Shown piece by piece: positions 5,795 to 43,017 of a DNA stretch of 64,000 nt. This DNA comes from Plasmodiophora brassicae. Lineage: Eukaryota. Where the stretch lies: positions 124,001 through 188,000 of the forward strand of contig CP145415.1 of assembly GCA_036867785.1 (NCBI GenBank). The letters run 5' to 3'. Every line of letters starts with the position of its first letter. The stretch's first letter is position 1. Below the pieces are notes generated by a model that saw only the letters and a program-made list of their open reading frames with translations, was not told the DNA's origin and did not search any database. The translations under genes were made by a program, and so were the position numbers.

Positions 5795-7191
5795 ATGACC
5801 GCGACGGGCGGCGTCACGTGCGTCGCGAGTCTCGACGGTGCGTCCCGCGCGTCTGCGTGGTTCGCGCCGTCGCTGCCGCTGACTCTCACGCGACCCAGGG
5901 CACAAGGACGTGGTATGGTCGGTGGCGTGGTCGCCGCCGGGCGACCTGCTGGCGTCGTGCTCGTCGGATCGCACGATTCGGATCTGGGCGCACGAACGGG
6001 ATGGACGCTGGCTCTGCGTCGCTGTCCTGGACTCGGTGCGTTTGCGCCCCCCCGATAGGCAGCCGCGCTGGGCGTCGCTCACGTCGCCGCTAGGCACATC
6101 GTCGTACCGTGCGAAGTGTGGCGTGGTCGCCCGATGCCACGATGCTGGCATCGGGCGGGTTCGACGGCCTGGTCTGCATCTGGCAACGCGACACCGATGA
6201 AGACGCGACCGAGTACCGATGCGTGGCCACCCTCGAAGGCCACGACAACGAGGTCAAGTCGGTCGCGTGGTGCGCGACGTCAGACAGCCCGCTGCTGGCG
6301 ACCTGTAGCCGCGACAAGAGCGTCTGGATCTGGGAGCGTACGTGACGTCCGGCACATTCGTTTCCTCCCCCCAGTGCTCCTGATCGTGGGGCTGTCGCAG
6401 TCGTCGACGATGGCGATTTCGAATGCGTGTCCGTCCTGCAAGGGCACACGCAGGACGTGAAACTTGTGAAATGGGCCCCGGCGCAAACCATGCTTGTATC
6501 GGCCTCGTAGGCGGGCGCGCTCGTCTGGCACTGTGATAACCATGCTAACCCCCTGGTCGTTGGGAAGGTACGACGACACGCTGCGCGTCTGGGCCGAAGA
6601 CGAGGACGACTGGTTCTGCGTGTCGGTCCTTAAGGGCCACACGTCCACCGTCTGGTCGTGCGATTTCATCGACCGCCGCGGCGAACGAATGGGTACGGTC
6701 GCGTGTGGAATTCGTCAACGGATGCGAACCTGACGTCCGGGTTGCCGAACGACAGCGTCGTGCAGCGACGACCGCACCGTCATCATCTGGCACAATCCCG
6801 CGTACGCCGACCTGCCTTCGGAAGGTTCGACGCGCCGCCATTCGCCCGTGTCCCGCCCCTGTCTCATGCCGGGTTCCCAGCGCAATGGACACAGGTGCAG
6901 GTGATTGCCGGGTGCCATGACCGCCCAATCATGTCGCTGTCGTGGCGTCCCGGTTCGTCGGCGTTCGCGACCTCGGGAGCCGACGACAAGATCTGCTTCT
7001 ACGCAGGCGGCGATGCTGGTGATGATGATGATAAGGATGATGCTGGTCGGTATCGTGTACGCGGTTGCATTGAGCACGCGCATGAAGGCGAGATCAATGT
7101 CGTGTGTTGGTCCCCCGCCGGAGACATGCTCGCGTCCGCCGGGGACGACCACACCGTGCGACTGTGGGCCGCTAGTCCCATCGATACATGA
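5795..7191 (+). CDS. CIA1: Cytosolic iron-sulfur assembly WD40 protein CIA1/CIAO1 (multi-exon)
   Basis: WD40 repeats with CIA1-typical segments: [91 protein letters not shown]. Confidence 0.9.
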
Positions 7192-13600: not shown

Positions 13601-15877
13601 GGATCCATCCCCGTCGGTCGCCCCGTCCCCGTCGGCACCCGCTACATCGATCGGTCCCGAGCGGCCTCTCCCTGCGACGACGCCGCACCGGGCGCCACGA
13701 CGACGCGTTGTCCTCATTCGGAAACGGGCACCTGCACCAGCGTGCAGGGAAACGCAGGGCCCGAGTGACCGGGATCAGCTCGGGACGGGACCGGCACCTT
13801 CCCGTCTCGATCGCGGTGAACCTCGTGACGAACGACGCCAGAGTGACGTCGAAGGCGAGCCAGTGGAACCAGATGGGCGTGAACACCCCGTTGTGGACAA
13901 GAGGGATGCGGAGACCGATGCGGCGCCGATCACGTGCTGTTACGCGGCACGATGCCCCGCCTGCCCAGCGCCGATCGTCACCGAGAATTCCTCGGTGCAG
14001 GCCGTCCCGACTGTCAGCGACGCGTCCGCGGATCCTGTTCCAGGCCCGGCAGCGTACTCCATCGAGCTCCAGACCGACCCGCCTCCCGTCCGGATCGATT
14101 CCAACACGCAGGTGGAGGCACGCGTCACCGCCCACAAGTCGGTTCAGACCGATTCATCTGGTACGTGGGCATTGTGTTGACGCCAGCTGTGGTCAATGCG
14201 ACGTTCATGAATGGGCCTAGGCGGCGAGCTGACGAAGCCGGCTGTGGTTACGACCAGAATCAAGCCGTGTTCGACGACGACATCGACGTCAATGGTAACC
14301 GTTGCGAGCGTATGACGGTTGCGCGTCTAACCGGACCCCGGCAGGACTTTGCAGACCTGGACCTGACCGTGGACACCTTCATGCAATCCCTGTCGAGAAC
14401 GCGGAACCGCCCTGCCCCATCCGTCATCGTCGTACGTAACTCGCATGGTCCAATACGGATGCGCACTCGCGCTGAGTCGAATCGGTTCAGAACGATGACG
14501 CGTTGCGCGACGACGTTTCCCGATCTGTGTTCGCGCTTGACGGCAGCGGCGTTCCCAACCAGCGCATGGGTACGTCTGTGCCTGATATCAGTGCTCACCG
14601 CCTCGGGTAACGCCCGCGTCTAGGGCCGCGTTCCTTGATTCCGTTAAACATCGGTGGGCAACGATTCGAGGTGCTTCGCTCCACGTTGATGCGGTATCCG
14701 GATTCGCTTCTCGCCAAGATCGGCAGGTCGGCGTCCCCGTTGTACATCGACCGGTCGCCGACGTACTTCCCGTTGATCGTCGACCTGTTCCGCACCGGGA
14801 AGCCGATCGGCCTGCCCGCCAGCGCTGCCGTCGACCTCGAAGCGTTACGCCAGGAGGCCCGATTCTACAACGTCGAACAGCAGATGTTCCCGAATGGGAT
14901 CCCATCCGTGAAACCAGCCGCTAACGAGAAGACGCACACCGACAGTACGCCGGCCCTTCGTGTGAAGGAGAACGACCAAAGCAGACTGATGGAAGCTGTT
15001 CTGACAGATGCACCGGATCCGGCAGCAGGTTCGCCGGCCCAGTTCGAGCTCCATGAGCGGTGTCTGCTGACGCCAGGCATGTCGGTGACGTTCTCGACCC
15101 GGTCGAATGAGGTGTTGGTCCTGGATACTATCGCCGGGAAGGGTACGTGTCAACCGTTTTGCCTGCGTACTTGGAATGCTGAATGGCGTGTCGCGTTAGG
15201 GAGGTTGCTGTTTGATTCGGAGATGTCGGCGCGGCCGGAGTCCAACGTGACGGGTGCGGTTGTGTTTGATAGCGACGCGCACATCTCGACAGGGCCAGGG
15301 GACACAATCCCAATTGGGAACGTGTACCCGGCATCCGGAAAGTACACGTTCCACATGTCGCAGCCAAGGTCGGAACATACAGTATTCCTTTATGTGTGTC
15401 CTGCTGAGTTCAAATTGTCATGCCAGGCAGCTGGAAGGATGTCCCGGTGACATGGATGTCGTATGCGTGTTCTGTGGCCATAGTCAGCGCCGCCAGCAGG
15501 ACCCGGGGCGATTGTCGCTGTGTGCGACGTGCCATGCACGCTTGCCTGACCCGCAGCAACCTCTGGCTCAGCCGCAACACGGTGGACAGTCGGAGCAGCT
15601 GACGGTCTGCATCCGCATCATTTGCACGTTCGATGCAAGCAGCCGATGTCAAGCGACCATGGTCTCCATGCAGCGCACTAAACCAACGGTCAAGGTGCAA
15701 CAACCACAACCAGTCGCGCCATCGCGATCGCCGAACCGGGCACCCATCGTACCGACTAGAAGAAAAGCAATTCCAGTGCCGGGGCCACCACAGGCGGCCT
15801 CGAAACGTCCTCATGCACACGGATCGTCGGTGAGGCCAAGTCCACTGCCTATTATCAGGCAACCACCGATCTCGTAA
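10602..15877 (+). CDS. Large low-complexity (Ser/Pro/Asp-rich) protein with a C-terminal KCTD-type BTB/POZ domain (multi-exon; possibly two genes)
   Basis: A 3.6-kb open exon (10602-14160) is followed by short exons. The BTB reads IPLNIGGQRFEVLRSTLMRYPDSLLA..YIDRSPTYFPLIVDLFRTG..LRQEARFY from about 14640. Linkage of the two parts through introns is inferred. Confidence 0.55.
12674..13058 (+). repeat. Tandem coding duplication, period 198 bp (66 aa)
   Basis: cctgacct(g/c)ccagagccgacacctg...gcgcagtttcc occurs at 12675 and 12873. The protein repeat is PDLPEPTP(D/G)VCVLPDS...PGCASNTGAVS. Confidence 0.9.
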
Positions 15878-15932
15878 AACGGAATTGTGTACCTATCAAC
15901 TACCACGTCTTCGACTGAAGACAAAAAAGAAA

Positions 15933-16017
15933 TGCCTGCAGCAAGGCTCGAACTTGCGACCTCAGGATAACTCATTGGATATGAGACCTACGCTACTACC
16001 AACTGAGCCATGCAGGC
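15933..16017 (-). tRNA. trnM: tRNA-Met(CAT), elongator type, with an 11-nt intron (15969-15979)
   Basis: Reverse complement is GCCTGCA-TGGCTCAGTTGGTAGTAGC-..-CTCATA[TCCAATGAGTT]ATCCTGA-GGTC-GCAAGTTCGAGCCTTGC-TGCAGGC-A. It has A/B boxes, an acceptor stem, an intron at the canonical 37/38 position and a T-run terminator downstream. Confidence 0.93.
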
Positions 16018-16174
16018 ATGGATCTGCTCTCTGACACGGCACCGTTGTCCTCTATAGAATACGATAAGCTTCCAGTAGAATATCATCGTTCCAGACCACG
16101 GCCTACGCATTCCAAGGTTGGCGGGGGCACCGCCCTGCGACGAGTCACCAGCTGACCGTAGAAAAAAAGGTTAA

Positions 16175-16247
16175 AGGCCACGCAGGGAGTCGAACCCTGG
16201 TCTACAGATTCAGAGTCTGTCGTGATAGCCACCTACACTACACGGCC
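16175..16247 (-). tRNA. trnQ: tRNA-Gln(CTG)
   Basis: Reverse complement is GGCCGTGTAGTGTAGGTGGCTATCACG-ACAGA-CTCTGAA-TCTGT-AGAC-CAGGGTTCGACTCCCTG-CGTGGCC-T. It folds as a cloverleaf and has a T7 Pol III terminator just downstream. Confidence 0.93.
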
Positions 16248-16765
16248 GGGACTTGCGGAACCTGCAGGGGTAATGCAATCAGCAGCAACACATCCTGAAA
16301 ACGTTGTTCCGCCAAGCGTGGCCGTATGTGCTGTCACGTTATGCCCTTGCCGAAATCGACAAATCCAATGCGAAAGACATCGGTAATGACCGCTCCTCGC
16401 TACACTGGGTACTGTGTCGGATGCGGACGGAGGCGACGAAGGATGAAGGTGGAGGCGATGATTGAGATGTAGTCGACCCATCGTCAGCTCCTTCGATTAT
16501 GCACGCGACGTCGCATCACAGCTGCTGCCAAGGTGGTGCTTGCCGACGTAAGCTGGTACTGAATTCCAGGGCCTCATCAGGTTCGTGTTCACCAACACCA
16601 CCTGGATGGTTCATCTAGGTCCGGTTTCATCGCGCTTAATCTGAAGTTGTTTTCTGCTCAGTTTACCTGTACTATCCTGATCATCCAGTAGCTGTTCCTG
16701 CATCATCATATCTAACCATGAATCGGGAGGCACGTGCGATAATATCTTCGGCCATATCTGCCACG

Positions 16766-18884
16766 ATGGCGGCTAGGGTCGGCATCCTGGTGATTGGTCT
16801 GCTAATCATCCCGGCAGTCCGGACATCCGATTTATGTTCGCTCCTCCTGTCTGGCTGTAACGAACCATCGTACGTGACTCCTGGTCCGCGCTGGACCCGC
16901 GATCTTCCAAATGGAACATCAACCGATACTTTATGTGTAGAACAACGGTAGCAATTACACCGTCGAAGATCAAGTTGGGATCATCTATCCCCAGCACCTC
17001 CATCGACAGCTCATGGTTCTCGTCACAGCTAAGCTTTTGGAAATCCGTCCTAGGACTGTACGATGGGCGGCACTATCGCATATCATTGGTGAATCAGGTC
17101 CTTACGCATCCTTGGTAGGACAATATCGGGCTTTCCAATCACAGGGATCATGGATGGAGCGTTTGCAGGGCTCACTAGCTTGCGCTATTTGTATGCAATT
17201 TGTGCATCGGCGTTCCATCGCTAGACTCATTTCATGCGCATATGCAGAGATCTGAGCAGCAACGCGTTGTCAAACGTCTCAGCTGCCAACGCGAATTTCA
17301 ACGTCAAGTTGACAGCATTATTCTTGCAGAACAATAGCATGACGTCTGTCGACGCGACAACCTTCGCCTCACTGTCTGAACTGCAGACCTTGTAGGTTCG
17401 CGTTAGGATTGTTTTCTCGAGATGTCTGACATTTGGTCTCCTATGTAGGAACGTCGCCTCGAACCATATCACTGCATTTTCTACGGATTCGTTCGCTCAG
17501 GCTTCTACACTGCTGTCGCTGTATGTATTGTGGCCAATCATACCTCCTTGACGTCCTTTGATCATGTCGCCTGTGTTAGGAATATCTCGAACAATGAAAT
17601 GGCAACATTGCCGCGACAGTTATTCCACCCTTTGGCGTCTTACACTGGTATCCTGTATACCGATCATACGTTTGCACCCGTGGAATAACAGGATCGGCTA
17701 ACATGATTATCCATTCCTGTAGGAACCTGGTAGATGGCATGGAAGCCCTAACGTGCGTCCCATTGGCACCGCCTCAAATCACAAGAACGAATTACGTGAT
17801 TGGGAACAAACCCACATGTGGCACGACGACAACGATCTTCATTCGACCACTGGCTCCAACACCCATACGGTTTAAATCACTGGCTATTGCACCAACTCCT
17901 AAACCTACTCCCGCACCCACGCCCGCACCAACTCCAGCACCGACCCCTGCAACGAATCGGGCACCAACTCCTGCACCAACTTCCGCTCCAGGTAGTGTCG
18001 CCAACCGAACCCCTACCCCTGCCCCAGTTCACAGGTTCACGACTAACGCCCCAACACCGACACAATCGTTATCATCTGCCACATCGACGTCTGTACCTGC
18101 GCCGTCACCTATTGCGACGTCTCACGCCATCGTCACCCCGCCGACCATCCATTCGGATCCTTTAACAACCCCTGCACCAACGCCCCTGCCTAGAGGTTTC
18201 ATGAGTAGCCGCGCGACGTTCTCAGCTCAAAGTCAAAACTCTCGGCCCCTCCTCAATGCAACCAGTTCATCGACGAGTACCAGCCGGCTTCCAGCAACCA
18301 CGCGTCGAGTGTCGACCAAACATATTGTCAGCAAGCCCCCATCAAATGCCTCCATAGCGGCGACGATCAACGCGCTGCTCAACACAGACAACGCTCTGGT
18401 GATGGTGTTCCTGGCGGGAACGATTATTGTGATTGTCTCCACCCTCATCATCCTATGTCTGTTGAAGCGGTCGCGCCGTTCAGCAGCACGTCGTAACATG
18501 ACAACGAGGATGACGCCAGCGCCCGTCCGGGCACCGTACAACGTCGTGCAAGGTCCGGCCAGAGTCGATGCGGCTCCAGCAGGGCTTCGTGATTTCAAGC
18601 TCGATACGCGCACAGGCAACACGCTGTATGACGGGGCTTCGACAGTGGATACGATGGCTGAAACCTCTCCGAACACGGCAGCGACCATGGGCGAAAGGAC
18701 GCTCAACAACACGCTCGACACGGTGCCGATGCCGACGATGAACGACGACGCCGAGGCGACATTGCGACAAACCACCTCGTCCAACAGGCAGATTGACCCG
18801 CGCCTTCTGGCCCCCGTTGGCAACCGTCAGCCGAAGCGTCAGGGCCAGCCAATAGGCAGTATCGACTACGGCAACCTTCCTTGA
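16766..18884 (+). CDS. LRR / Pro-Thr mucin-stalk single-pass surface receptor, paralog A
   Basis: Signal peptide MAARVGILVIGLLIIPAVRTS then DLC..C. LRR exons at 17119-17190, 17248-17391, 17449-17520 and 17580-17654. Cap [20 protein letters not shown] stalk, TM ALVMVFLAGTIIVIVSTLIILCLL, tail ending GSIDYGNLP. Confidence 0.85.
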
Positions 18885-19018
18885 CCTTGAATGGCGCACT
18901 ACGCGAACCGTTGTGCATAACGGTCTTGACGTAAAGTACCCTTACGAGTTTTCCGTTGCAAATCCCAATGAACATGCGAACAATAATATCTGTCGACCGT
19001 AATATCTGGCACTGGTCG

Positions 19019-21279
19019 ATGGCGCTTATGACACTCGCTGTGGCAGCATTGGCGAGTACCGCATTCTGGGATACCGCATGCAGTTTCGATTTATGCTCAG
19101 CGGTTAGCTGTTCAGGGGTTAAAATGTAACTCTCGTACATGGGCGCCCCCAGAATTAAACGTTCAAACGCTCAATGCGCCTTGTTCAGCGTAGCGACACC
19201 ATCGACCATATCGCGTACATCAACACTGCCGAACAGCATTGACGACTCGTGGTTTGCATATTCGCCGCAACCAATCATAAGCTGGCTGGAGCAGCTAAAT
19301 TTTCAATGGAGCTCCGTAACCTCCCTGTACGACCGCTATGCATTATGTCGTGTCGCCGTTGCTTTCAAATGACAAGTACTGATGGCTAGGACGATATCGG
19401 GGTTCCGTATTATTGCGATCCAAGATAACGCGTTTAGCAGTCTGACCAGCTTGACCTACCTGTAAGACGTACTACGTATACGCCAAGTCAAAACCATTGC
19501 ATAACGTGAATATTCAGAGACCTGAGCAACAACGCGATAACGGGCATATGTTCCGGAAACATGTCCATCAATGGGATGTTGACCAACCTATATATTCAGC
19601 ACAATTACCTGACGTACGTAGATGGAGCCACGTTCCAGACACTGCAGGCACTGCAAACATTGTACGCCCTGGCATATCCTGCGTTTGCATGACCGGCTGT
19701 GTGGTTTGACTCGTTAATTGCAGGAACATTTCGTCGAACATGATCCATTCGTTTTCGGCAGACGCGTTCACCCGAACTACTATGCTTAAGGCGCTGTATG
19801 TACTGGCTCTACGACAGCACTCGTGTGCTAAGGCAACCTAATAATTGCTCTTGCGTGCCAGAGACATGACATTTAATCCGGTGCCTTCTCTCCCGCGCAG
19901 ACTGTTTTCCCCGTTAACGTCCTACACTGGTGTACTGTACGGCACGTTCGCTTGCAATGCTTGAGAGGATACGCTGGTTGATCATTGCGCACCCCGATAG
20001 GGACCTTGCCCATGGGTTGACAACGCTGAACTGTGTCCCGTTGCCGCCCCCGAAGATCCTTGCCGGCGATTACAAAACTGATCTGCAGCCTGTATGTGGC
20101 ACAACTACAGCGGCGCCAGCGGCGACGTCGCCGGTTCCTACTCCTAAACCAACTCCAGCGCCTATCGCCGCACCACCACCACCACCAAAGCAAACTACGG
20201 ATCATGTTCTGACTCCTGTACTGGGATCATATATGCCAACACCCGTGCCCCGTTTCGCGTCAGCGCCAGCACCAACACCTCTACTCATTCCCGCACCGAC
20301 ACCGTCGCCCACTCCTGGTCGGTCAATGCCGACACCCACTTCTCCATCAGGCCCGCCAGTACAATATTCCCCTGCATCAAGCCCATCACCCACTCCACCA
20401 GCAACTCCCGCACCTACTCCAGCACCAGCGGCTGTGCAAATCCACGCGCCAACTCCGACACCGACGTCTCCTATACGAACAGGCGCGACCAGTCGTGCTG
20501 CCGCCTTTGCAGCAAGTCTGACACCTGCACCGATCCTAGGGGGTCCTCCACCCGCCCTTCCGATACGCTCTTCAGCTGGCGCGTTACGATCTCGACGTCC
20601 GACCGCGCTCCCGTCGCCTTCGACAAGCTCCATGATACGGGCAGAACGAGTATCAGTAACGCCTAGGCGCACGACAGCACAGCTCAGGTATCTCGCCTGT
20701 CGCTCTGGTATCCGGAAACCGACGTCATTAACCGTTTCTCACGATAGCCCGGCTCGGCCGGTAGTCGGCCAGCCAGTGTTGCAGCATTCCGGGCCGAGTT
20801 CGTCCTCGGTTCAAACCTTGGACGACGGTGATCTGAGTAGTGCCTTGCTGGGCCTATTCGGCGCTGCTTGCTTTGCAGTTGTTTCGATGACAATACTCGT
20901 CTGGTGGAGAATTCGGGTGGCCGCGATGCGATCGGCGCGTAACAGGCTGATACTGGGGAACGCTTTCCTCGGCGAGGTTGAGGCTGAGGTCCACCAGGGA
21001 TTCAACCGAGTGTTCAACGAAACGATGGATCCAAGAGCTGTCGATGATACGCAAGGAACAACGTCGACTCTGCCGACAATTCCTACGTCGGAAACCTTGG
21101 GCCCCAGAACCATGGCGACAGTACCATTAGACGGTCGTACGATGGCGACGGTAGACAACGGCACGACATTAGACCATCGCGCTCCTGAGGGAAACGGTCT
21201 CCATCCCGCGAATGCCCGTCCACATCCTCCTGCTCGAGGTCCCCATATGATAACGGTCCATGGGGCGCGACAGTATTGA
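19019..21279 (+). CDS. LRR / Pro-Thr mucin-stalk single-pass surface receptor, paralog B
   Basis: Signal peptide MALMTLAVAALASTAFWDTACS then FDLC. LRR exons at 19390-19461, 19518-19661, 19724-19795 and 19862-19936. Cap LNCVPLPPP..PVCGTTT, stalk, TM ALLGLFGAACFAVVSMTILVWW. Confidence 0.85.
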
Positions 21280-21548
21280 CCATTTATATACACATTCGGG
21301 AGATATCGTATGGACCATAAGGCCCGGTTCCTTTGTCCCTGGCCGCAGCGATATCCAAGCAACCTCCTGCGTTAGCGATAATCTGACCTGGGTTGCGAGC
21401 CCTGACGACTGCGAATGGTTCAGTTGCTTTGCACCCGCCGTTATTACAGACGTACGATTTCGCGGCGGGAATTTCCCGGTCGATGAAGATACCGATTATT
21501 CGCAGGTACAGTGAGATCTGCCGGCAGGCATATCTGCACATGTGTGCT

Positions 21549-23832
21549 ATGGCGCTGAGGACAGCTACAGTGACCGCCTTGGTGATGTTGGCGTTCGGGG
21601 GAGGCAAGGCACCGGCATCGGCCAGTTTCGATTTGTGCGTCGAGCTCGGGGCAAAGAACGGCTGCTCCTCGACGATCGTGTAAAATGCGGGCTCGCGAAA
21701 CCCAAGCATGGATCAAGGCTGACCAATGAATGCGAACAGAGCAGCGACGCCGCCCGATCTGTCCAATCAGCCGACTGGCACCATTGACGCGTCGTGGTTC
21801 TCGTACAATCAGCCACCGCACAAGTTCCAATGGGACGCGGTCACTTCGCTGTATGGTGGTCAATGCTGGTGCCATTTCGTGCCAAATAATGCAATGCACA
21901 GGACAATTTCCGGGTTCACCCAGATTACTCAGATCGCGGACGGGGCGTTTTCCGCCCTCACAAGCTTGGCGTCCTTGTAAGTAGACGTTGCTGTGCCCAG
22001 GGAGCCCCGCTTGCTCATTATCGGACTAGGGATTTGAGCAAGAATGGGATTACAAGCATTTCGGCGACCAGTGCAGGCCTCAGTCCAACATTGACGACAT
22101 TGAATTTGGGTTCGAATGCTCTATCTTCGGTTGACGCCACAACATTCCTGTCCCTGACGCAACTACAAACCCTGTAAGTACAATCAGCTCCTGTATAGAT
22201 TCAATGTTGTAAAGGGCTACATCTGTTGCAGAACTGTCTCATCGAATTCTATTGTATCATTTTCGGCCGATGCCTTCGCTGGAACAACGCGCTTATCAAC
22301 CCTGTACCAGCCGTTGCCGACGGCGGCTCCAGCGATTGATATCTGACCGTTTGTTGCATCAGAGATATAACGTATAATCAGATGAGATCGCTCCCGAGAA
22401 GGTTATTCCTCCCGTTGACGTCCTACACTGATGTCCTGTAAGCCGATCTGCTCGCCCCGGTCAACAGAACAGGCACCGATGGGTTTGACGACACTGTTTG
22501 TTGTCTTAGGGACGTCATTAGTGGAAATATCCATCTGACGTGCGTCCCGTTGGCACCTCCAGGCATCACGACACCCGCCAACTACAGGACGGGAGGGTTG
22601 CCCATTTGCGGAACGACAACAAGCGGCCCCGCACCAACCCCGGTTCCAACCTCTCGACCTACTCCTGCACCAACTCCTGCACCAACTCCTGCACCAACTC
22701 CTGCACCAACTCCTGCACCGACTCCTGCACCGACTCCCGCGCCAACTCCCTCGTCAACTCCGGCACCAACACCGGTTCCGACCTTCTGGCCTACCCCTGG
22801 GCCAACGTCAGCACCAACTCCTGCACCGACTCCCGCGCCAACGCCCAGATCCGCTCCGGCACCAACACCGGTTCCGACCTCCTGGCCTACCCCTGGGCCA
22901 ACGTCAGCACCAACTCCTGCACTAGTGCCCGGACCGACTCCCGCGCCAGTCCCCGCACCAACCGTCTCTCCAACCAAGGCACCGACCCCGCGAACGCGCC
23001 AGGGATCAGCAATGTCCTCCTCTATTCCTGCAATCAGTACGTCGCCAAACGTCGCGCCGAGTCTCAGTCCAACACCGGCGCCTATCATGGCGCCATCATC
23101 AGCCAAGAAGCACCCCCAAACAATGAGGGGAACGTCCGCCAAACCTTATCCGGTCATGTTCTCCTCGTTGTCGGCAAACCTGCGAACGGCACGAGCATCT
23201 GTAATCCCACGTCGATCCACTACTGGAGCACGGTATGATCTCGCGCGCCGCCCATCGCTGATAGAGGTTCCATATTGACTTTGGATGACAGGGTGGCCGG
23301 CCGAGTTGGGCAGCCGACGTCGCAGCAATCGCAACCGGGTTCGTCCATGTTTGCAGTGTTCGGTGGAAGCCTTGATGCTGCATTCCTGGGTGTCATCGGT
23401 GCCATCAGCTTTGCCTTTATCGCGTTCACCGTATGCGCCTGGTGGCGGATCCGGTCAGCGGCGACACGGTCGTCTCGGAACCGACGCATTCTTGGCAACG
23501 AGTTCCTCGGCGACGATCGCGCAGAGACCCACCCCGACTTCAACCGACGATTCGACGGAACCGTTGATCCACGAGCCGTCGACAACACCATGCAGGGGGC
23601 AACGACGTTGCCCACAATGCCAACGGATACGCTGGGCGACAGGACCATGGCGACAATGCCGCTGGATGATCGCACACTGGCGACGATGGACAACGACGCC
23701 ACACTCGACCACCACGGTGAAGAGGAGAGCCCGTACCAGCCAGCGATCGCGCTTGCACGACGACCTATCGGAGCGCGTAATCCCAAGCAGTACCATGTTG
23801 GCCCATCGGGCAGCATTGAATATGGGCAATAA
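21549..23832 (+). CDS. LRR / Pro-Thr mucin-stalk single-pass surface receptor, paralog C
   Basis: Signal peptide [27 protein letters not shown] exons at 21902-21976, 22030-22173, 22232-22303 and 22363-22437. Cap [20 protein letters not shown] stalk, intron 23233-23291, [25 protein letters not shown], tail ending GSIEYGQ. Confidence 0.85.
22661..22922 (+). repeat. Coding minisatellite (12-bp ACTCCTGCACCR, about 7 copies = TPAP) plus a 96-bp-period higher-order duplication
   Basis: Seven 12-bp units at 22661-22744. The block ctccggcaccaacaccggttccgacct(t/c)ctggcctacccctgggccaacgtcagcaccaactcctgcac occurs at 22758 and 22854. Confidence 0.9.
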
Positions 23833-23967
23833 AGCACAGAGGCCACCGGGGCAGAACGAAGCGTACAGGCCGTCTCCCCTGAAACGCGGGTACGTACTGG
23901 TAATCAACGTTAAGCATTGGCGATCGGGCTGTGCGTACCGCCATACCGATTAACCGACAGGCCTACC

Positions 23968-25863
23968 ATGGTGAAGGGCCTAATCGTCCTGTTCCTGGTG
24001 GCTGGAGTCGCAGCCGGCGTCGCCAGTGCGTTCGACCTATGTTCGGCGGTTATGTGCTCTGGGACTGTAGTGTAGGACGCGTGGTTCAGGCGACATGTCC
24101 GACAACGGTTTTAATGGCAACCGCTTCCCTGCAGGTCAGCGACGTCCTCGGACGGCAGCAGATTCCCCAGCGTCGTCGACGGCTCATGGTTCACGTATTC
24201 GCGAGGCGTATTCGGGTTCCTGTTCCCATTTCAATGGGGCTCCGTCACGAAATTGTACGGACGACGATACGACACGCCCACTCACATTTCGAATCCCACT
24301 GATGCCATCGCTTGCGTAGGACGATCTCGGGGGTGGGCATTACCGAAATTGCCGACTCCGCGTTCAACGCCCTCACAAGCTTGACATTCTTGTACGAGGT
24401 GTTGCGCGCTTAGGCAACGTCGACATCCTGACCTCGCCGCACAGGGACTTGAGCGACAACCTGATTGCACGCATGGGTGCCGCAAGCGCGGGCCTCAGTT
24501 CTACGTTAACGACCCTGAACTTGGGTGTCAACGTCCTGCAGACAATCGATTCGACCACATGCAGTAACCTGGGCCATTTGCAGTACCTGTTGGTTTCATA
24601 TGGTGCATCCCAATTTCCCCGATATCCCTCTCATTCATGTTGCAGGAATGTTTCGAGGAACAATATCGTGACGTTCTCCGCTAACGCGTTCTTTCCGACG
24701 CCGAAGTTAACAGCAATGTACGTTCGACAGGACTGGCCGCCTAACGTATAATATCGAACACCGGTGTCAGAGACATGACGTATAACAGTATGGAGACGCT
24801 CCCTCGACGCCTGTTTTCGTCGCTGACATCCTACACGGGTGAACTGTATGTCAGCCGCGTTGCAGCGGTTCGACCAATGCCCGTTTGGGACGATGACATG
24901 TGTGGGTGCTGGACAGTGATCTGGTGGACGGGTTAGGAACGCTCACCTGCGTCCCGTTGCCGCCTCCCAGGATCGCGACCGGCAATTACCAATCCGGCGG
25001 CCTGCCCATATGCGGGACAACAACAACGGCTCCAGCAATACCACCTTTGACACCACATCCGACATTGAATCAATCTCCACAACCGCACACAGTTTCACGA
25101 AGCCCTACCGTCATAGCTCCAAGTGTCGCCCGGTCTTCCTTCCCGTCGCCATCACGTCGCCATAAGTCGTCTGGTGCGTCACACCTACCACCTCGTCGTC
25201 CCCGGTCGACCTACTCTTTAACAACAATGTCGCCTGCCACTCCGGATCAGACAGATGCCCCGATGACCTTGACTTCGAGAACAAGCCTACGCTCGTTACC
25301 CATAGTTGCAAGTCCACGACGAGCGGCGACATCCACAGCAGGGTATCCTGGATGTGTCGTGCTTGGAAATTCAGTGACCTGGTTGTGATAGGCTCAGAGA
25401 AATCGACCCACCACCATCCAGCCGGCACACGGCGTCGAGCTCGTCTGCATTTGAACTGTTGAGCGCTGCGCTTCACCCGCTATTCCTTGCTGTGGTCGGG
25501 ACTTTTAGCGCTGCTGTTGTTCTGCTGACGGCTTGCGTCTGGTGGCGAAAGACATCCGCCGCCGTACTGCATGCGCCGCGCAATGTGCTGATTCGGAGGG
25601 ATGCTCCGAATGGAGACGTTGTGACATTGATCACCAACAGGGCGATGAGCAGGACATTCTACCCAGGAGGCGTCGTTGGTGGTGCGCATGGTGCCACGAC
25701 AACCCCGACAATGCCAACGGGTACACTAGCTCCCAGAACGATGGCTACTGCTCCGTTAGGCGGCCGCACTCTTGCAACCATTGACGTCGGCGGTACACTC
25801 GCTCATCATGGGCGAGCAAGCAAGCCCGACCTGTACGTTAAAACAACCGACGGGTACGTGTAA
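23968..25863 (+). CDS. LRR / Pro-Thr mucin-stalk single-pass surface receptor, paralog D
   Basis: Signal peptide MVKGLIVLFLVAGVAAGVASA then FDLC. LRR exons at 24320-24391, 24445-24588, 24646-24717 and 24771-24845. Cap LTCVPLPPP..PICGTTT, shorter stalk, intron about 25343-25391, TM LFLAVVGTFSAAVVLLTACVWW. Confidence 0.85.
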
Positions 25864-25974
25864 TGGCAAGTACCGGAATATGGCGGGTGTCCCGCAACAC
25901 GATTGGACGGGCGGGCACCGTTCAGCACGTTTGCGCAAGGAACCACTACACGAACTGTAATGGACTTGACGTTT

Positions 25975-26698
25975 TTAATGGACCCACCTCGATGCGTTAA
26001 ACAGCCGCTCGACGCGTTTATAGCCGAGCAGCCTGGCTGTCGTCCGAGGCGACGGGAACGACGGGCACAGGGACGGCATATCAAACAGGACGGGGAGCGT
26101 GTCAGAGAACAGGCGAAAGAGCGGCAAGCGGAACTCCTCCGACGAGCTGACCCCTTGGTTTCTGTGTCAAAACAGCACGCTGGAGTCAGGATTCAGTTCC
26201 AGAAGCCGGAAGCGTCATACGGCCAGATGGCGAAGTGCAGTACATGTCGCCCGAGGAAATCGGTGGCGGTCGCCAGGAGCGGCTCGGCACGAAGAAGGAT
26301 CTCGGCGACGCCCGCCTGGTGATAGAACGCCGCGTAATGCAGCGGTGTCAGATCGACGTTCCGCTGGCGGACGTGCACGCTGGCACCCCGGGCGATCAGG
26401 TTCTGGACAAGGTCCTCGCGCGTCGCCTCATCCGGGCATAACCTACCATCTCTCTCGTCAGGTTGACACAGGCGGCAGGTGACAACGTCCAGGCAACCGG
26501 ATACCCGCTTTCAATGATGAAGAAGAGGGCTGTCCGGCCGAAATGTAGGTCGCGGTTGACCAACGATGCGTCATGGTCGAGGATGGCCTCCACGAGACGC
26601 GTCTGACATCGTATTGCTGCCAGATGCAGGTGGTCAGCACTGCCCGCGACCTGACACGCCATCGTCGCCATCACGAGCGCCCTAGCTAACGTTGTCAT
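25975..26698 (-). CDS. Small ankyrin-repeat protein with a predicted signal peptide (2 introns)
   Basis: Starts MTTLARALVMATMACQVAGS. Ankyrin-like units LHLAA..LVEAILD, GRTALF..LVQNLIARGASV, LTPLHYAA..VAEILL and DFLGRHVLHFAI. Exons join in frame. Confidence 0.75.
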
Positions 26699-27073
26699 CT
26701 TCGCCAAGCAATTGCCTCTGGGACGCGGGGTCAACCCCCATCATGATTCACGTTCGAGTGCCTTTCCGCGCCCCACAACCTGCCCGAAAGCAGTACGCGC
26801 GGGTGCTTCCCCCTGGAGAGAGAACGCAACCTCATGGCAGGGGCGGACCGGGCGCTGCTGTTGACGGTTACGACTGTGCGGGTATGGCCAAGGTGCAACC
26901 TCGTCCCCAACCCACAGATGTCTGATTCAGCCACCTTCGTCAGGGGCACTTAACCAACACCCGGATTGATCCGCGGGATTGGTCCCACGCCCAACATCAC
27001 CCCTGCTTCCGCAGCCGATTTCCACACGCGTGGGCATTAGTTGAGAGGCCAGCATAGCGATAACGATAGGAGG

Positions 27074-28992
27074 ATGACTGCACCGAAGCGCCCAGAGCGG
27101 CACCGGTCGTCGATCGACACGACGTCGAAGCTGGCGGCCGGGTTCGTCATGATCGGCATCCGCAGGCACCGCGCGCTCCTGCTGGTCTCGTCGGCCCTGA
27201 TCCTGCTGAGCGCCGCGCTGCTGTCCGCCCTCGCCTTCATCGTCGTCGGCGTGTTCGACCGGCACTTTGCGTTCGTGCCGACGCCGTTCTCGGGCAACAA
27301 CCACGCGTTTGTCCAGGTCGCCATGGGCCTGCACCTGGGCGTGTTCGCCGCCACGTTGCTCTGCACGATCGCCCTGCAGGTGTCGTCGCTGTCCACGCGT
27401 TTCATGCAGCATCGGCACGCGCTGGCGATCCCCGACCTGGTCCCGTACGTGCTGATCGGGGCGCTGACCGTCCTGACCGTGATCCTCACCGTGCTGCGCG
27501 TCGTGTTCCCTCGCCTGTGGCACATGCCCGGCATCATGGCCGGGTACCTGACCGTCGTCTGGCTGTACGTCGCCCTGCGCGTCCTGGTCGCGTCCGCCCT
27601 GTCGGGCCAGTCCATCGCCTCCGTCTACGGCTGCGTCAAGCGCAAGTACTCGGCGGACGCCTTCGACGACTTTGAGGTCGTCGTCAAGATGATGATCGCC
27701 GACCTCGCCTCGTCCGTCCACAGCCATTCCGCGCTGGACGCGTTCGAGCTCGTCCAGGCCTGGCAGCAGTACCGCATCCGGTCGAAGCAGCCGGACCTGG
27801 AGGGCGGCATGACGCGGGACGCGGGCGTCGCCGACCTGGACCCGAAGACGCTGGCGTTGTACCGTCGCGCGCTGCGATACTCGACGGACGCGTACGGCCT
27901 GTTCGCGCTGCTGCTGGACAGGATGACGAAGCCGGACCTGACCGGGTGCGGGTCGATCTGCGCGCCCCGGGAGCACCGGCGCCGGACGCGGTTCCGCGTC
28001 CTGAGCCAGATCGACGACGACGACATCATCGACGGGAACTTCACGCCGACCGTCTGCCTGCCGGCGTTCATCTGCACCGTCGACCGGCGGCGCCGCGAGG
28101 TCTGGATCAGCATCAGCGGGTCGTGCACCGTCTCGGACGTCCTGACCGACATCCGCGCCGACGCCATCGCCATCGACGCGCCGCCCGGCTTCGAGGGCGG
28201 GTACGCCCACGCCGGCATCTGGACGTCGGCGGTGAACGTGCACGACCGCCTGCGGTCCAGCAGCGACCTGGCCGCGTTCCTCGGCGAACACCCCGACTAC
28301 CGCATCATGCTGACCGGGCACTCCCTGGGCGCCGGCACCGCCACCGCCCTGCACCTGATCCTGCAGAAGCACCCGCTGGACGGCGTCACCGCCCGCCCGG
28401 TCCGGTGCGTGGCGTTCGCCTGCCCGCCAATCCGTAAGCAGCCCCGCATGTGAAACACCGCCGCCGACGTGTCGGTCTGATGATCGCGTGCGCAGTGTCG
28501 GAGGAGCTGGCGGCGCGCCCGATCCCGGACCTGGACCAGGTCTACGTGGTCGACGACGTCGTCACGCAGATGACGCTGCACGGGTTCAAACGGTTCGTCA
28601 GCGAGATGGCGGTGCTGTCGGCGGCGCTGCACGACTCGGCGGCCCGCGCCCGCATGCCGCGCCGATGGGCCTGCGCCTACGAATCGAAGCTGAGCGCCGC
28701 GCTCGCCGAGTTCCTGGACGGCCTCGACGTGGCCGCGGTCGAGCGGCAGATCGAGGAGCGCGTCGCGCGGATGGTCGACGATGAGCGGCACAGGCCGCTG
28801 TTCGCTCCCGGGCGGAAGGTGCCGCTGCGGCCCGCGAACGCCGAATGGGACCTGTCCTGGGACGACGACTACGACGGGATCCGCGCCACGCCCACCATGT
28901 TCGTCAGCCACCTGTTCGCATCGTACCACGACGCCATCGAACGCGCCACCGGCGACTGCGACCCGGGTGGGGCACCCGTGGAACGACTCTGA
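27074..28992 (+). CDS. Membrane-anchored class-3 lipase (diacylglycerol lipase-like)
   Basis: About four N-terminal TM helices, then ISISGSCTVSDVLTD, YAHAGI, lipase nucleophile motif TGHSLGAGTA and AFACPP. One intron near 28434-28495. Confidence 0.8.
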
Positions 28993-40683: not shown

Positions 40684-40787
40684 CTCCCTCATGGAAACAA
40701 AACGAAACGACTCAGGCAGCGGTGCAGGATCCAGCAACCCGCTAGCTCGAGCAACCGCTGACATAGCGTGTCCTAGCCTCATGGCAT

Positions 40788-40859
40788 GAGTAGAATTCGA
40801 AACGAAGTTCGTTCCGCGGCAGAGAGTAGAATTCGAAACGAAGCTCGTACCGCGGCAGA
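40788..40859 (+). repeat. 36-bp tandem duplication (2 copies, 2 mismatches)
   Basis: gagtagaattcgaaacgaag(t/c)tcgt(t/a)ccgcggcaga occurs twice back to back. Confidence 0.85.
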
Positions 40860-40953
40860 CGGGTCGCCGTTTCTTTGGACGAAAGGATTTACGTGCCGTT
40901 GCAGTGTTGTGACTGGTGACAATTATAGTGCACGCATGCGTCGGGGATACCTC

Positions 40954-43017
40954 ATGAAGACGACGTCGTCGTTGCTGGCCGTGTGCAGTCTCCTCGTCGC
41001 GGGGCCGGCAGCCAGCATGGTCGTCGACCCACAGACGCAATTTGCAGAGGCGCAAGCGCACGTCGTGAACGGCCGCTTCTCGGATGCGATCGCAATTCTG
41101 CGCCCGATGTACGAAATGTATCCTGTCGACCAAATCCTCGAGGTCTACAAGGGAGCACTGGTCAGGTCCGGCGCCACCGACGAAGCCGTCAATCTCCTGG
41201 AACTGGCGCTCAGCAAGCACCCTTCTCGTCAGGTTGCTCTGATGTGGTGCGAAGAGCAGGCGAACTCTCTTCTGCGACAATCGCGTCAGGTCAACACCAA
41301 GGGCGCGCGCGCCATTCACGATGCCGTCGCCACGTTTCTGTCGCCCCGTTTACGATCCAGACTGGGGGACATTTGCGACAAATCGTTGCACGAAGACCCG
41401 GACGACCTGCATGCCGTCTGGATCGTCGGATACCTGAAGATGATGCTGGGCGACCTGGACGAAGCCAGGAGGCTGCTGTCCCGCCTGCGCGATGAACAGC
41501 CACCCGACTGGGCGAACCACGAGAACGTCAACCAGGCCCTGTCACAAGTTCTCAAGGTGTTGTACTACGCGAGATTCTTCAAGGCGTCCACCTGTGATGA
41601 ATCGTACAACATTGCGAAGCAGCTGACCGGGATCGAACGGTCGGCGACTGCCATGAACCTGTACCATAACGCGTTATCATTCACGAAGCAGTTCCATCCA
41701 GAGACGACCGACACCTACCTGGAACAGCTCAGGCGAACATTCGCCGAGCACTCCGATAACGACCTGCCGGCGCTGGTCACCTGGGCGGAAGCGCTGGCGG
41801 TCGGTGAAATCTCCTCTGATCCCTTACCGAACCCGACAGCGGGCGATCTGTTTCGCGTTCCTGAAATGGTTGTTTACCCGGACAATGTCGGCCAACGGCC
41901 ATCGAATTCTCGCGCCGTTCAACTGGAATGGGGAGACTGGGTCCCATTCGTGTTTGAGGACAAACGACACACCCTAATCCGCCTCAAGGTTCCAGTTTAC
42001 GCGTGGGGCTTGCCAATCAGCCTGCAGTCGGAGCGGTTCGTCTACCTGTCCATGCCGTGGGGGTTCGCCGCCGGGAATTACCGTCCGATGCCCCGGACGG
42101 TCCCAGTGCGGACGATAACGCAGCCATGTCTTATAATCTCGCCGAATAGCAAGAACAACATCTACCATCAGCTGGTCGAATGCGTGGGCATCCTGGCTGT
42201 AGCCCTGCGCGACATCGTCCCCAGGCACCCGGACCTACATATCATGCTGCCTGACAGGCCATTCTTCAGGCAATTGCAGGAACTGGTCAACTTGCGCCCT
42301 CCTGTTGTCTGGGACGATGCCACCAACCATGGTCGAGTTCTTCTGGAGCGCGCCATGTACGTGGATTTCCAGCTCGTCGACGATCTGGCGCAGGATGAAG
42401 AGGACCAACATGGTCTGGACGCCATGTGGGCCAGACGAGACTATTTCAACAAGTACCGCCCTTCCTTAGCATCAATCCGGTGGGCAAGAGACCTGGTGAT
42501 GTCATCATCGCCCGAGGACGGTTCGTCGTGTACACCGCGTGTCGTGTATGTGTCCCGGGAGGGAACAGCACGGTCGTTGACAAACGTTCAAGAACGGAGC
42601 CTCATCCAGAGGGTAAAACAGCGTGTCGGCGGCGACTGCTTCGATGTCTTTCGGGTGAAGTCTGGCGATGCGTCGCCGACGTTGCTGGACCACATCAATA
42701 TGTTCCGGTCAGCTGATATCATTGTCGGAGCTCATGGTGCGGGCTTGGCGAACATGATGTGGGTCAGGCCTGGGGCGTCGTTGATCTACTGGCCGATCAA
42801 GCCCATGGTGGACGTGAATCATATCGCGCTTGCCGCCGCCCTTAACATATCCGTCCATGTGATCGAACCATTGCACGCCTACATCTGGGACACGTTCCAC
42901 CTTGACGCCAGCGAATTCGACCGGTGTGCCGGCCTCGTCGTTCAAGCCATCGATCGCATCCTGACTCGAATGCGAAAGCCACCGTGCACATGCTCCGTTG
43001 AACACGATGATTTATGA
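40954..43017 (+). CDS. Intronless secretory-pathway TPR + glycosyltransferase family 61 (DUF563) protein
   Basis: Signal peptide MKTTSSLLAVCSLLVAGPAAS and TPR-like helices. GT61 motifs NIYHQLVE, VVYVSRE..RSLTN and FRSADIIVGAHGAGLANMMW..GASLI. Confidence 0.8.
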   Translation: MKTTSSLLAVCSLLVAGPAASMVVDPQTQFAEAQAHVVNGRFSDAIAILRPMYEMYPVDQILEVYKGALVRSGATDEAVNLLELALSKHPSRQVALMWCEEQANSLLRQSRQVNTKGARAIHDAVATFLSPRLRSRLGDICDKSLHEDPDDLHAVWIVGYLKMMLGDLDEARRLLSRLRDEQPPDWANHENVNQALSQVLKVLYYARFFKASTCDESYNIAKQLTGIERSATAMNLYHNALSFTKQFHPETTDTYLEQLRRTFAEHSDNDLPALVTWAEALAVGEISSDPLPNPTAGDLFRVPEMVVYPDNVGQRPSNSRAVQLEWGDWVPFVFEDKRHTLIRLKVPVYAWGLPISLQSERFVYLSMPWGFAAGNYRPMPRTVPVRTITQPCLIISPNSKNNIYHQLVECVGILAVALRDIVPRHPDLHIMLPDRPFFRQLQELVNLRPPVVWDDATNHGRVLLERAMYVDFQLVDDLAQDEEDQHGLDAMWARRDYFNKYRPSLASIRWARDLVMSSSPEDGSSCTPRVVYVSREGTARSLTNVQERSLIQRVKQRVGGDCFDVFRVKSGDASPTLLDHINMFRSADIIVGAHGAGLANMMWVRPGASLIYWPIKPMVDVNHIALAAALNISVHVIEPLHAYIWDTFHLDASEFDRCAGLVVQAIDRILTRMRKPPCTCSVEHDDL

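Follow-up and report, generated by a model that had tools for sequence, protein, structure and literature searches.

What kind of protein is encoded by a tandem array of leucine-rich repeat (LRR) genes in the clubroot pathogen Plasmodiophora brassicae, and what could it do for this parasite? The array occupies positions 16766-25863 on the forward strand of a 64,000-nucleotide (nt) stretch of contig CP145415.1 (assembly GCA_036867785.1, positions 124,001 to 188,000), which is called the window here. An initial annotation, made from the letters of the DNA, had described four tandem genes of one common architecture in a protist and had taken them for a convergent, diversifying family of recognition or adhesion receptors. 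The protist source was assigned correctly, and spliced gene models confirm four head-to-tail paralogues (g1 to g4) with products of 581, 608, 626 and 494 amino acids (aa). Each carries an LRR head on a stalk, one transmembrane (TM) helix and a cytoplasmic tail. These proteins are probably type-I membrane glycoproteins of the parasite surface which serve as LRR receptor-like or adhesion proteins, a reading that we hold with moderate confidence.

The gene models were set by hand on the forward strand (Table 1); automatic enumeration of exon chains for g1 gave 1344 possible paths. Every model forms a single open frame with one stop codon, at its end. The interval begins with the ATG of g1 and closes with the final base of the g4 stop codon, and the genes are separated by gaps of 134, 260 and 135 nt. 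For g2, which is counted from the ATG given in Table 1, a second in-frame ATG lies upstream at 18968. The frame of g4 is intact and can be aligned to those of g1 to g3 from end to end, with saturated synonymous divergence (dS). In tblastn searches of the window, the four ectodomains gave 49 matches and the tails 11, all within 16700-25900, and therefore exactly four copies, with no additional LRR cassettes of the family, are present in the 64 kb.

All 27 introns are of the GT..AG type, lie in phase 2 and measure 49-72 nt (mean 60; 57-71 nt for the six introns of g1), in agreement with the figure of about four introns per gene, at a length of 60 bp, given for the P. brassicae genome in the available part of PMC4471660. 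The donor begins with GTA in 26 of them, the exception being intron 4 of g4 (GTTGGT). Retention of 24 of the 27 introns would destroy the frame, and the paralogues place their introns identically although synonymous sites are saturated. Within the LRR region each intron interrupts the codon of the second leucine in LxxLxLxxN, and each exon holds one or two repeats. Open reading frames (ORFs) of at least 250 aa in the array are last-exon ORFs only (17598-18884, 19918-21279 and 22442-23278). The LRR part is missing from them because it is encoded on micro-exons; exon sizes and ORF list together bear out the earlier remark that the ORF track is blind to it for this reason.

For transcript evidence, contigs of the sequencing runs X5, X1 and X2 (labelled 'RNA?', from three studies) were mapped onto 16500-26000, and X15, a DNA-like run containing 99% of the words, served for comparison. 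Contigs drop rare forms, and 15 of 18 joints were listed. All seven introns of g3 appear as GT..AG joints, five of them in X5, X1 and X2 and two in X1 and X2 only, and a GT..AG joint in X5 removes intron 7 of g2 (20688-20747, 60 nt, in frame). X15 shows none of the 15 joints listed. The initial annotation had asked for confirmation of the exons by RNA sequencing, which the RNA-like contigs provide for the whole of g3 and for this one intron of g2. A contig of X1 (19037-19216) reads unspliced across intron 1 of g2, so that some DNA or pre-mRNA must be contained in this run. One further joint, from 20426 to 22801 (AG..GG, side 23, X5 only), was attributed to cross-matching of the PT repeats in g2 with those in g3 and discarded.

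The order of modules is the same in g1 to g4: a hydrophobic N-terminus, a cap with two cysteines, the LRRs, a C-terminal cap with two cysteines, the stalk, the TM helix and the tail. The N-terminal cap reads (F)DLC-x4-9-C and is followed by a short segment with (I/V)DxSWF and W..V..L. The solenoid consists of five full repeats of 24-25 residues and a sixth that runs into LxCVPLxPP-x14-15-CGTTT, which gives six units in register per protein. The description of about five LRRs, a Pro/Thr stalk, one TM helix and a tail was thus right, and the motifs quoted with it, the LRR3 and LRR5 strings included, were all found in the spliced proteins. Four cysteines are conserved in the ectodomain, two in each cap, and one cysteine follows the C-terminal cap. 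On the exon-4 translations the Pfam model LRR_8 (PF13855) scored 27.7 (g1), 27.0 (g2), 32.2 (g3) and 23.3 bits (g4) at a cut-off of 27, and exon 4 of g3 also matched LRR_4 (33.6 bits). The repeats hence belong to the 'typical' 24-residue LRR class, the score of g4 lying beneath the cut-off.

A profile of the exon-4 LRRs matched 231 proteins at E <=0.01 among 8000 scored candidates. The named proteins among the 120 matches listed are mostly chaoptin, artichoke and Toll-type proteins, and P. brassicae is not named among these 120. Against the PDB, the same profile found 81 sequences, led by LRIG1, the Nogo receptor, LRRC32, decorin, LGR4 and the variable lymphocyte receptors (VLRs). The repeats are ordinary animal-type LRRs of the typical class. 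Their caps are different: none of eight translations (for each gene, exon 1 and the initial 40 aa of exon 7) matched any Pfam family at E <=10, LRRNT and LRRCT included. Canonical LRRNT/LRRCT caps carry four cysteines, and with two conserved cysteines per cap and no match to a cap model the proteins fall outside this animal class.

Further searches were made with the last exon and the tails. A profile of the four tails, run against 1.84 billion representative proteins, returned one match, an ORF-style copy of the g3 tail. A homologous-protein search with the last exon of g1 gave nothing among 7999 scored candidates and was probably swamped by low-complexity words. The g3 tail found nothing in a homologous-protein search that included 'longer' lengths, and no relative among metagenome contigs; no match of at least 0.9 was obtained for the tail in the protein atlas. 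Outside the LRRs, no relative of any module is detectable in the searches made.

At 136-233 aa the stalk exceeds every other module in length; it contains 48-56% Pro, Thr and Ser and 11-15% Ala, and can hardly be aligned among the paralogues. It is mucin-like by composition and is predicted to be O-glycosylated. Tandem repeats occur in the stalks of g3 and, in a smaller array, g1 (Table 1), and X15 contigs break within those of g3. Over 17768-18084, the bin that contains the g1 array, the summed contig depth of X15 reached 5142, compared with about 90 elsewhere. A contig has a single depth value, which does not measure expression; the peak at PTPA-coding repeats indicates that Pro/Thr stalk-like repeats are common in the genome.

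Behind the stalk, a single strongly hydrophobic TM helix is followed by a tail of 100-136 aa. The paralogues have in common WWR(I/K)R beside the membrane, TLPTMPT, RTMATxPL and RT(L/M)AT(M/V/I)D..TL.HH. A possible likeness of RTMATxP to a 14-3-3 binding motif was dropped as evidence. In the fold predicted for the g3 tail segment from the four-tail alignment, only a helix at residues 19-71 is confident (local confidence score pLDDT 85-90 at residues 31-50), and pLDDT is below 50 for 133 of 179 residues. A Pfam scan of exon 2, stalks and tails gave no significant family, the only hit being LapA_dom in the g2 tail (E = 0.24). No catalytic domain of the kind found in LRR receptor kinases or enzyme-linked receptors was seen on the four tails by Pfam, tail fold or profile search, which agrees with the original statement that an enzymatic domain is missing. 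A side observation concerns 43 nt of the g1 tail (18669-18711), which have unlike flanks in contigs of all four runs, X15 included; this stretch therefore recurs at another locus of the genome.

Are the four genes diversifying? By the Nei-Gojobori method dS is 1.3-5.5 or incalculable, and thus saturated, for every pair. The ratio of nonsynonymous to synonymous divergence (dN/dS) amounts to 0.07-0.32 in the ectodomain and to 0.28-0.49 in the tail. Among the modules, conservation is strongest in the LRR head (49-59% identity). All four genes have been kept by selection, as seen from frames and 27 splice sites that are intact despite a dS of at least 1.3 or incalculable. Judged from these sequence comparisons, the paralogues g1 to g4 are old and subject to purifying selection. 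The five full repeats were compared in register by mean pairwise identity across the four paralogues with a one-sided permutation test. Identity is 0.81 at framework positions (40 columns), 0.406 at the concave-face x positions 2, 3, 5, 7, 8 and 10 (30 columns) and 0.387 at convex or loop x positions (50 columns). The earlier observation that framework residues are conserved while strand residues differ is correct, but every LRR family shows this. The term 'diversifying' itself is not supported: concave positions vary no more than convex ones and dN/dS is 0.07-0.49 on saturated dS, a pattern which the initial annotation had itself named as speaking against its proposal.

Variation between isolates was seen mainly in g2. 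An X5 contig over its stalk and tail (20349-21392) differs at 25 sites and by a deletion of 5+1 nt, about 2.5% in all; 21 of the sites are coding (12 nonsynonymous, 9 synonymous), and the deletion removes 6 nt in frame. Contigs elsewhere in the array show far fewer differences, with two nonsynonymous and two synonymous changes in g3 and one of each in g1. The variation of g2 looks relaxed rather than a signature of positive selection, and the X5 contig could represent an allele or an unseen paralogue.

Taken as surface receptors or adhesins, the proteins would work as follows. The small LRR head would bind a protein or glycan ligand derived from the host or from the parasite, a heavily O-glycosylated stalk would hold it off the membrane, and the TM helix would anchor the protein. 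The non-enzymatic tail may then couple occupancy of the head to cytosolic partners via linear motifs. Since the paralogues arose long ago and each has been maintained, they probably serve different ligands or stages and do not form a fast-diversifying repertoire.

Several points weigh against this reading. Signal peptide and TM helix were judged from hydropathy and the tail fold only, and the N-terminus of g2 is more weakly hydrophobic and stays under the hydropathy threshold of 1.6. The tail motifs fit none of the known signalling motifs that could be tested, and the g3 tail fold is compatible with a disordered, non-globular tail, the alignment of four sequences being weak evidence. Concave positions are not less conserved than convex or loop positions (permutation p = 0.62, from four old paralogues and without a site model), and with no excess of concave variation no particular binding face is indicated. 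The RNA nature of X5, X1 and X2 was assigned by guess. Among the 15 of 18 joints listed, none was found for the introns of g1, introns 1 to 6 of g2 or the sense introns of g4. The contig cover of g1 and g2 is patchy and this lack is not evidence of silence; the introns concerned are predicted from their conservation among the paralogues.

A further reading is that g1 to g4 are host-facing effectors, tethered to the membrane with their heads in the host cytoplasm, where they would bind host proteins, or with heads cleaved off as 'secreted LRR effectors'. The plasmodium has its life within the host cell, which makes such an exposure conceivable. The P. brassicae secretome is reported to be enriched in LRR proteins in the part of PMC4471660 that was available, and 19 of them, from entries chosen for having no TM helix, are given in the accessible part of PMC12503489. 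One entry of the catalogue is close at hand: in its supplement, PBTT_06328 is a protein of 271 aa with a signal peptide, no TM helix and PF13855 at 119-177, placed in sequence cluster 249 together with PBTT_05744 (187 aa) and PBTT_06563 (241 aa) (PMC12503489). Its tag adjoins that of PBTT_06327, and its PF13855 start fits g4, where LRR3 begins at residue 120. The tags 06323-06326, 06329 and 06330 are absent from the supplements of PMC12503489. Also in keeping with an effector role, g3 mRNA is found in RNA-like runs that are filed under several organism labels. Against it, the TM helix and the conserved tail are retained in all four proteins under purifying selection, which argues that the anchor and a cytoplasmic side are needed, and neither a cleavage site nor a host-targeting motif was found. 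The catalogue entry without TM helix is most simply explained as a truncated gene model. On balance we regard the effector role as rather unlikely.

Such truncation can be seen directly at g3. In the same 90% cluster as the g3-tail match is NCBI XXQ34155.1, 'Uncharacterized protein PBTT_06327 [Plasmodiophora brassicae]', whose 228 aa equal residues 399-626 of g3 and include the intron-7 junction. This sole public g3 model that we found is a C-terminal fragment starting from an internal Met. By the adjacency of the tags and the register of the repeats, PBTT_06328 probably represents g4 in truncated form. The catalogued LRR effectors come from the same organism and share PF13855 with the array; they have 187-302 aa and no TM helix as far as given in PMC12503489, whereas g1 to g4 have 494-626 aa with stalk, TM helix and tail. 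Effector pipelines drop TM proteins, according to the accessible parts of PMC12503489 and 10.64898/2026.10.14.759018. The four genes are real, yet the public gene models seen appear to truncate them or leave them out. The initial annotation knew of no description of the family. This needs correction insofar as the secretome of P. brassicae is already known to be enriched in LRR proteins and PBTT_06328 has been listed; it stands for the full-length form, as we found no paper that joins Plasmodiophora, LRR and mucin and none on the anchored, stalked form or the orphan tail.

The long stalk leads to another explanation, in which the stalk is the functional part of structural coat or wall glycoproteins, similar to LRX or hydroxyproline-rich proteins, in a glycocalyx or a spore or zoospore coat, and the LRRs serve for packing. 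The length and the Pro, Thr and Ser content of the stalk, its evolution through tandem-repeat expansion and the abundance of similar PT-coding repeats in the genome would suit such a role. We consider it quite unlikely: the LRR head, not the stalk, is best conserved, the tail motifs are kept, a stalk that hardly aligns fits a spacer better than a functional core, and a TM helix with a tail of 100-136 aa would be unexpected for a wall polymer.

How do these proteins compare with known systems? Platelet GPIb-alpha and the VLRs of lamprey and hagfish consist of a capped LRR domain on a Thr/Pro-rich stalk with a membrane anchor. The resemblance claimed at the outset is real as far as this layout goes: the P. 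brassicae proteins share the solenoid of 24-residue typical LRRs, a Cys cap at each end, the Thr/Pro stalk and the anchor, and VLR, Nogo-receptor and LRIG chains in the PDB are among the matches of their repeats. The caps differ from those of GPIb-alpha and the VLRs in the features given above. VLRs are anchored by glycosylphosphatidylinositol (GPI) and the tail of GPIb-alpha binds filamin and 14-3-3, unlike the TM helix and orphan tail found here. The organism is a rhizarian protist, and the likeness is convergent or merely reflects the shared LRR superfamily. A rapidly diversifying, VLR-like repertoire for immunity or self/non-self recognition is highly improbable, for the stalked layout, the tandem array, the isolate variation of g2 and g3 and the considerable accessory variation of LRR effectors mentioned in the available part of 10.64898/2026.10.14.759018 are outweighed by only four copies in the window, old duplications with dN/dS below 0.5, concave positions no more variable than convex ones, g2 polymorphisms in stalk and tail instead of the LRRs, caps that are not LRRNT/LRRCT, and genes that are each complete in the germline with ordinary spliceosomal introns and no sign of somatic cassette assembly.

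Among protist parasites, the PSA-2/GP46 surface proteins of Leishmania come close in module order, with a signal peptide, LRRs, a Thr/Ser-rich region and an anchor, and their genes likewise form tandem arrays of one orientation (PMC2584048, available part). The PSA repeat consensus G(T/S)LPxxWxx(M/I)xxLxxLxLxxxx given there is not found in the P. brassicae units, and PSA has a Cys-rich domain before the TM or GPI anchor where our proteins have the single Cys after the cap. The positive selection at exposed LRR sites described in the same part for the PSA genes of chromosome 12 is not seen in g1 to g4 (PMC2584048), and the PSA genes do not have the one-exon-per-repeat structure of the array. 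Without GxLP..W and with a single Cys outside the ectodomain caps, g1 to g4 do not belong to the PSA family. BspA-like proteins of Trichomonas and Entamoeba are comparable in their LRR ectodomain, one TM helix and short non-enzymatic tail, and probably mediate contact with host or ligand (accessible part of PMC2843621). They use TpLRR repeats (Pfam LRR_5, 23 residues), in contrast to the longer units here, and LRR_5 did not match the exon-4 translations at E <=1, which places the array outside this group. Plant receptor-like proteins have an LRR ectodomain, one TM helix and a short non-enzymatic tail and probably likewise mediate contact with host or ligand; their plant-specific repeat LxxLxLxxNxLsGxIP is absent from the P. 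brassicae units. Both BspA-like and plant receptor-like proteins are as a rule without a long Pro/Thr mucin stalk. LRR-on-stalk surface proteins are thus already known in animals and trypanosomatids, and g1 to g4 are a lineage-specific variant and not categorically new.

At g4, the contigs reveal a spliced transcript from the opposite strand. Each of its six joints is present in X5, X1 and X2 and none in X15, and the contigs that cover g4 pass unspliced through its predicted introns 1, 3, 5 and 6. Minus-strand joints and unspliced g4 introns together identify these contigs as antisense RNA and not as g4 mRNA. After splicing, the antisense RNA over g4 holds short interrupted frames only and no convincing reading frame. 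A minus-strand ankyrin-repeat gene ends near 26196, beyond g4, and the antisense RNA (seen in unstranded contigs) is either an intron-rich 3' extension of this gene or a separate non-coding RNA. Among the 12 papers listed in our search of the literature on antisense transcripts, the work on long non-coding RNA concerns plants and not the parasite.

The motif ATATCTG occurs seven times in the 64 kb compared with 2.08 expected, and four of the seven matches precede the starts of g1 to g3 by no more than 40 nt; for the longer form ATATCTGSMMC two matches were observed and 0.10 expected. None is found upstream of g4, the sole paralogue without the motif. ATATCTG may be a core promoter or 5' untranslated region (5'UTR) element. 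The lack of the motif at g4, its position under an abundant six-intron antisense RNA and the expression of g3 in the same runs led us to a further idea, in which the array is a stage- or clone-variable recognition set switched by antisense transcription, with LRR heads reaching into the host cytoplasm and several of the catalogued effectors being truncated models of it. We offer this as speculation, and think it very unlikely to be correct as a whole.

The array also differs from its surroundings in composition. The G+C content is 51-58% over 16001-26000, compared with 59-72% in the preceding 16 kb and 65-67% in the following 6 kb; within the array it amounts to 56.8% in exons and 50.9% in introns. 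Neighbouring genes are included in Table 1.

Table 1. Features of the LRR gene array and its neighbourhood (positions in the window)
Feature	Position	Strand	Remarks
Gene 1 (g1)	16766-18884	+	7 exons, 581 aa, no intron in stalk
g1 exons	16766-16869, 16941-17057, 17119-17190, 17248-17391, 17449-17520, 17580-17654, 17723-18884	+	
Gene 2 (g2)	19019-21279	+	8 exons, 608 aa counted from ATG 19019
g2 exons	19019-19125, 19189-19326, 19390-19461, 19518-19661, 19724-19795, 19862-19936, 20001-20687, 20748-21279	+	
Gene 3 (g3)	21540-23832	+	8 exons, 626 aa
g3 exons	21540-21679, 21740-21850, 21902-21976, 22030-22173, 22232-22303, 22363-22437, 22510-23232, 23292-23832	+	
Gene 4 (g4)	23968-25863	+	8 exons, 494 aa
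g4 exons	23968-24071, 24135-24254, 24320-24391, 24445-24588, 24646-24717, 24771-24845, 24917-25342, 25392-25863	+	
LRR micro-exon block, g1	17119-17654	+	exons 3-6: 72, 144, 72, 75 nt
LRR micro-exon block, g2	19390-19936	+	exons 3-6: 72, 144, 72, 75 nt
LRR micro-exon block, g3	21902-22437	+	exons 3-6: 75, 144, 72, 75 nt
LRR micro-exon block, g4	24320-24845	+	exons 3-6: 72, 144, 72, 75 nt
Stalk tandem array, g1	17888-17981	+	12-nt units, smaller than g3 array
Stalk tandem repeats, g3	22657-22962	+	12-nt PTPA-type units; 96-nt unit, 2.2 copies
ATATCTG motif, g1	16754-16760	+	5 nt upstream of ATG
ATATCTG motif, g2	18986-18992, 19002-19008	+	upstream of gene
ATATCTG motif, g3	21530-21536	+	upstream of gene
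Spliced antisense transcript over g4	23897-25411, contigs continuing past 26000	-	six CT..AC joints
Antisense introns	23897-23946, 24220-24285, 24536-24586, 25045-25108, 25234-25290, 25362-25411	-	canonical GT..AG
BTB_2 open frame	14611-15447	+	Pfam
tRNA-like gene	15932-16018	-	87 nt; no assignment by ARAGORN; may contain intron
tRNA-Gln(CTG)	16175-16247	-	upstream of g1
Ankyrin-repeat open frame	26196-26510	-	Pfam
Class-3 lipase open frame	27041-28450	+	Pfam
TPR + glycosyltransferase-61 open frame	40777-43014	+	Pfam
GH3 C-terminal + Fn3-like open frame	46876-48156	+	Pfam

To our knowledge, P. brassicae can be neither cultured nor transformed, and for this reason its surface is known almost wholly from gene models. 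Families such as the present one are dropped by the TM filters of effector pipelines, or are wrongly kept when a truncated model has lost the anchor. The main value of the full-length models therefore lies in annotation and effector catalogues, where they flag a likely systematic error, since gene predictors have difficulty with LRR micro-exons of 72 nt and with stalks rich in repeats. With one repeat per exon and introns all in phase 2, the array is also a clean case of exon-wise LRR modularity in a rhizarian. Furthermore, the models provide candidates for the surface receptors or adhesins of a plant parasite that lives inside cells, and offer antigens for localisation work.

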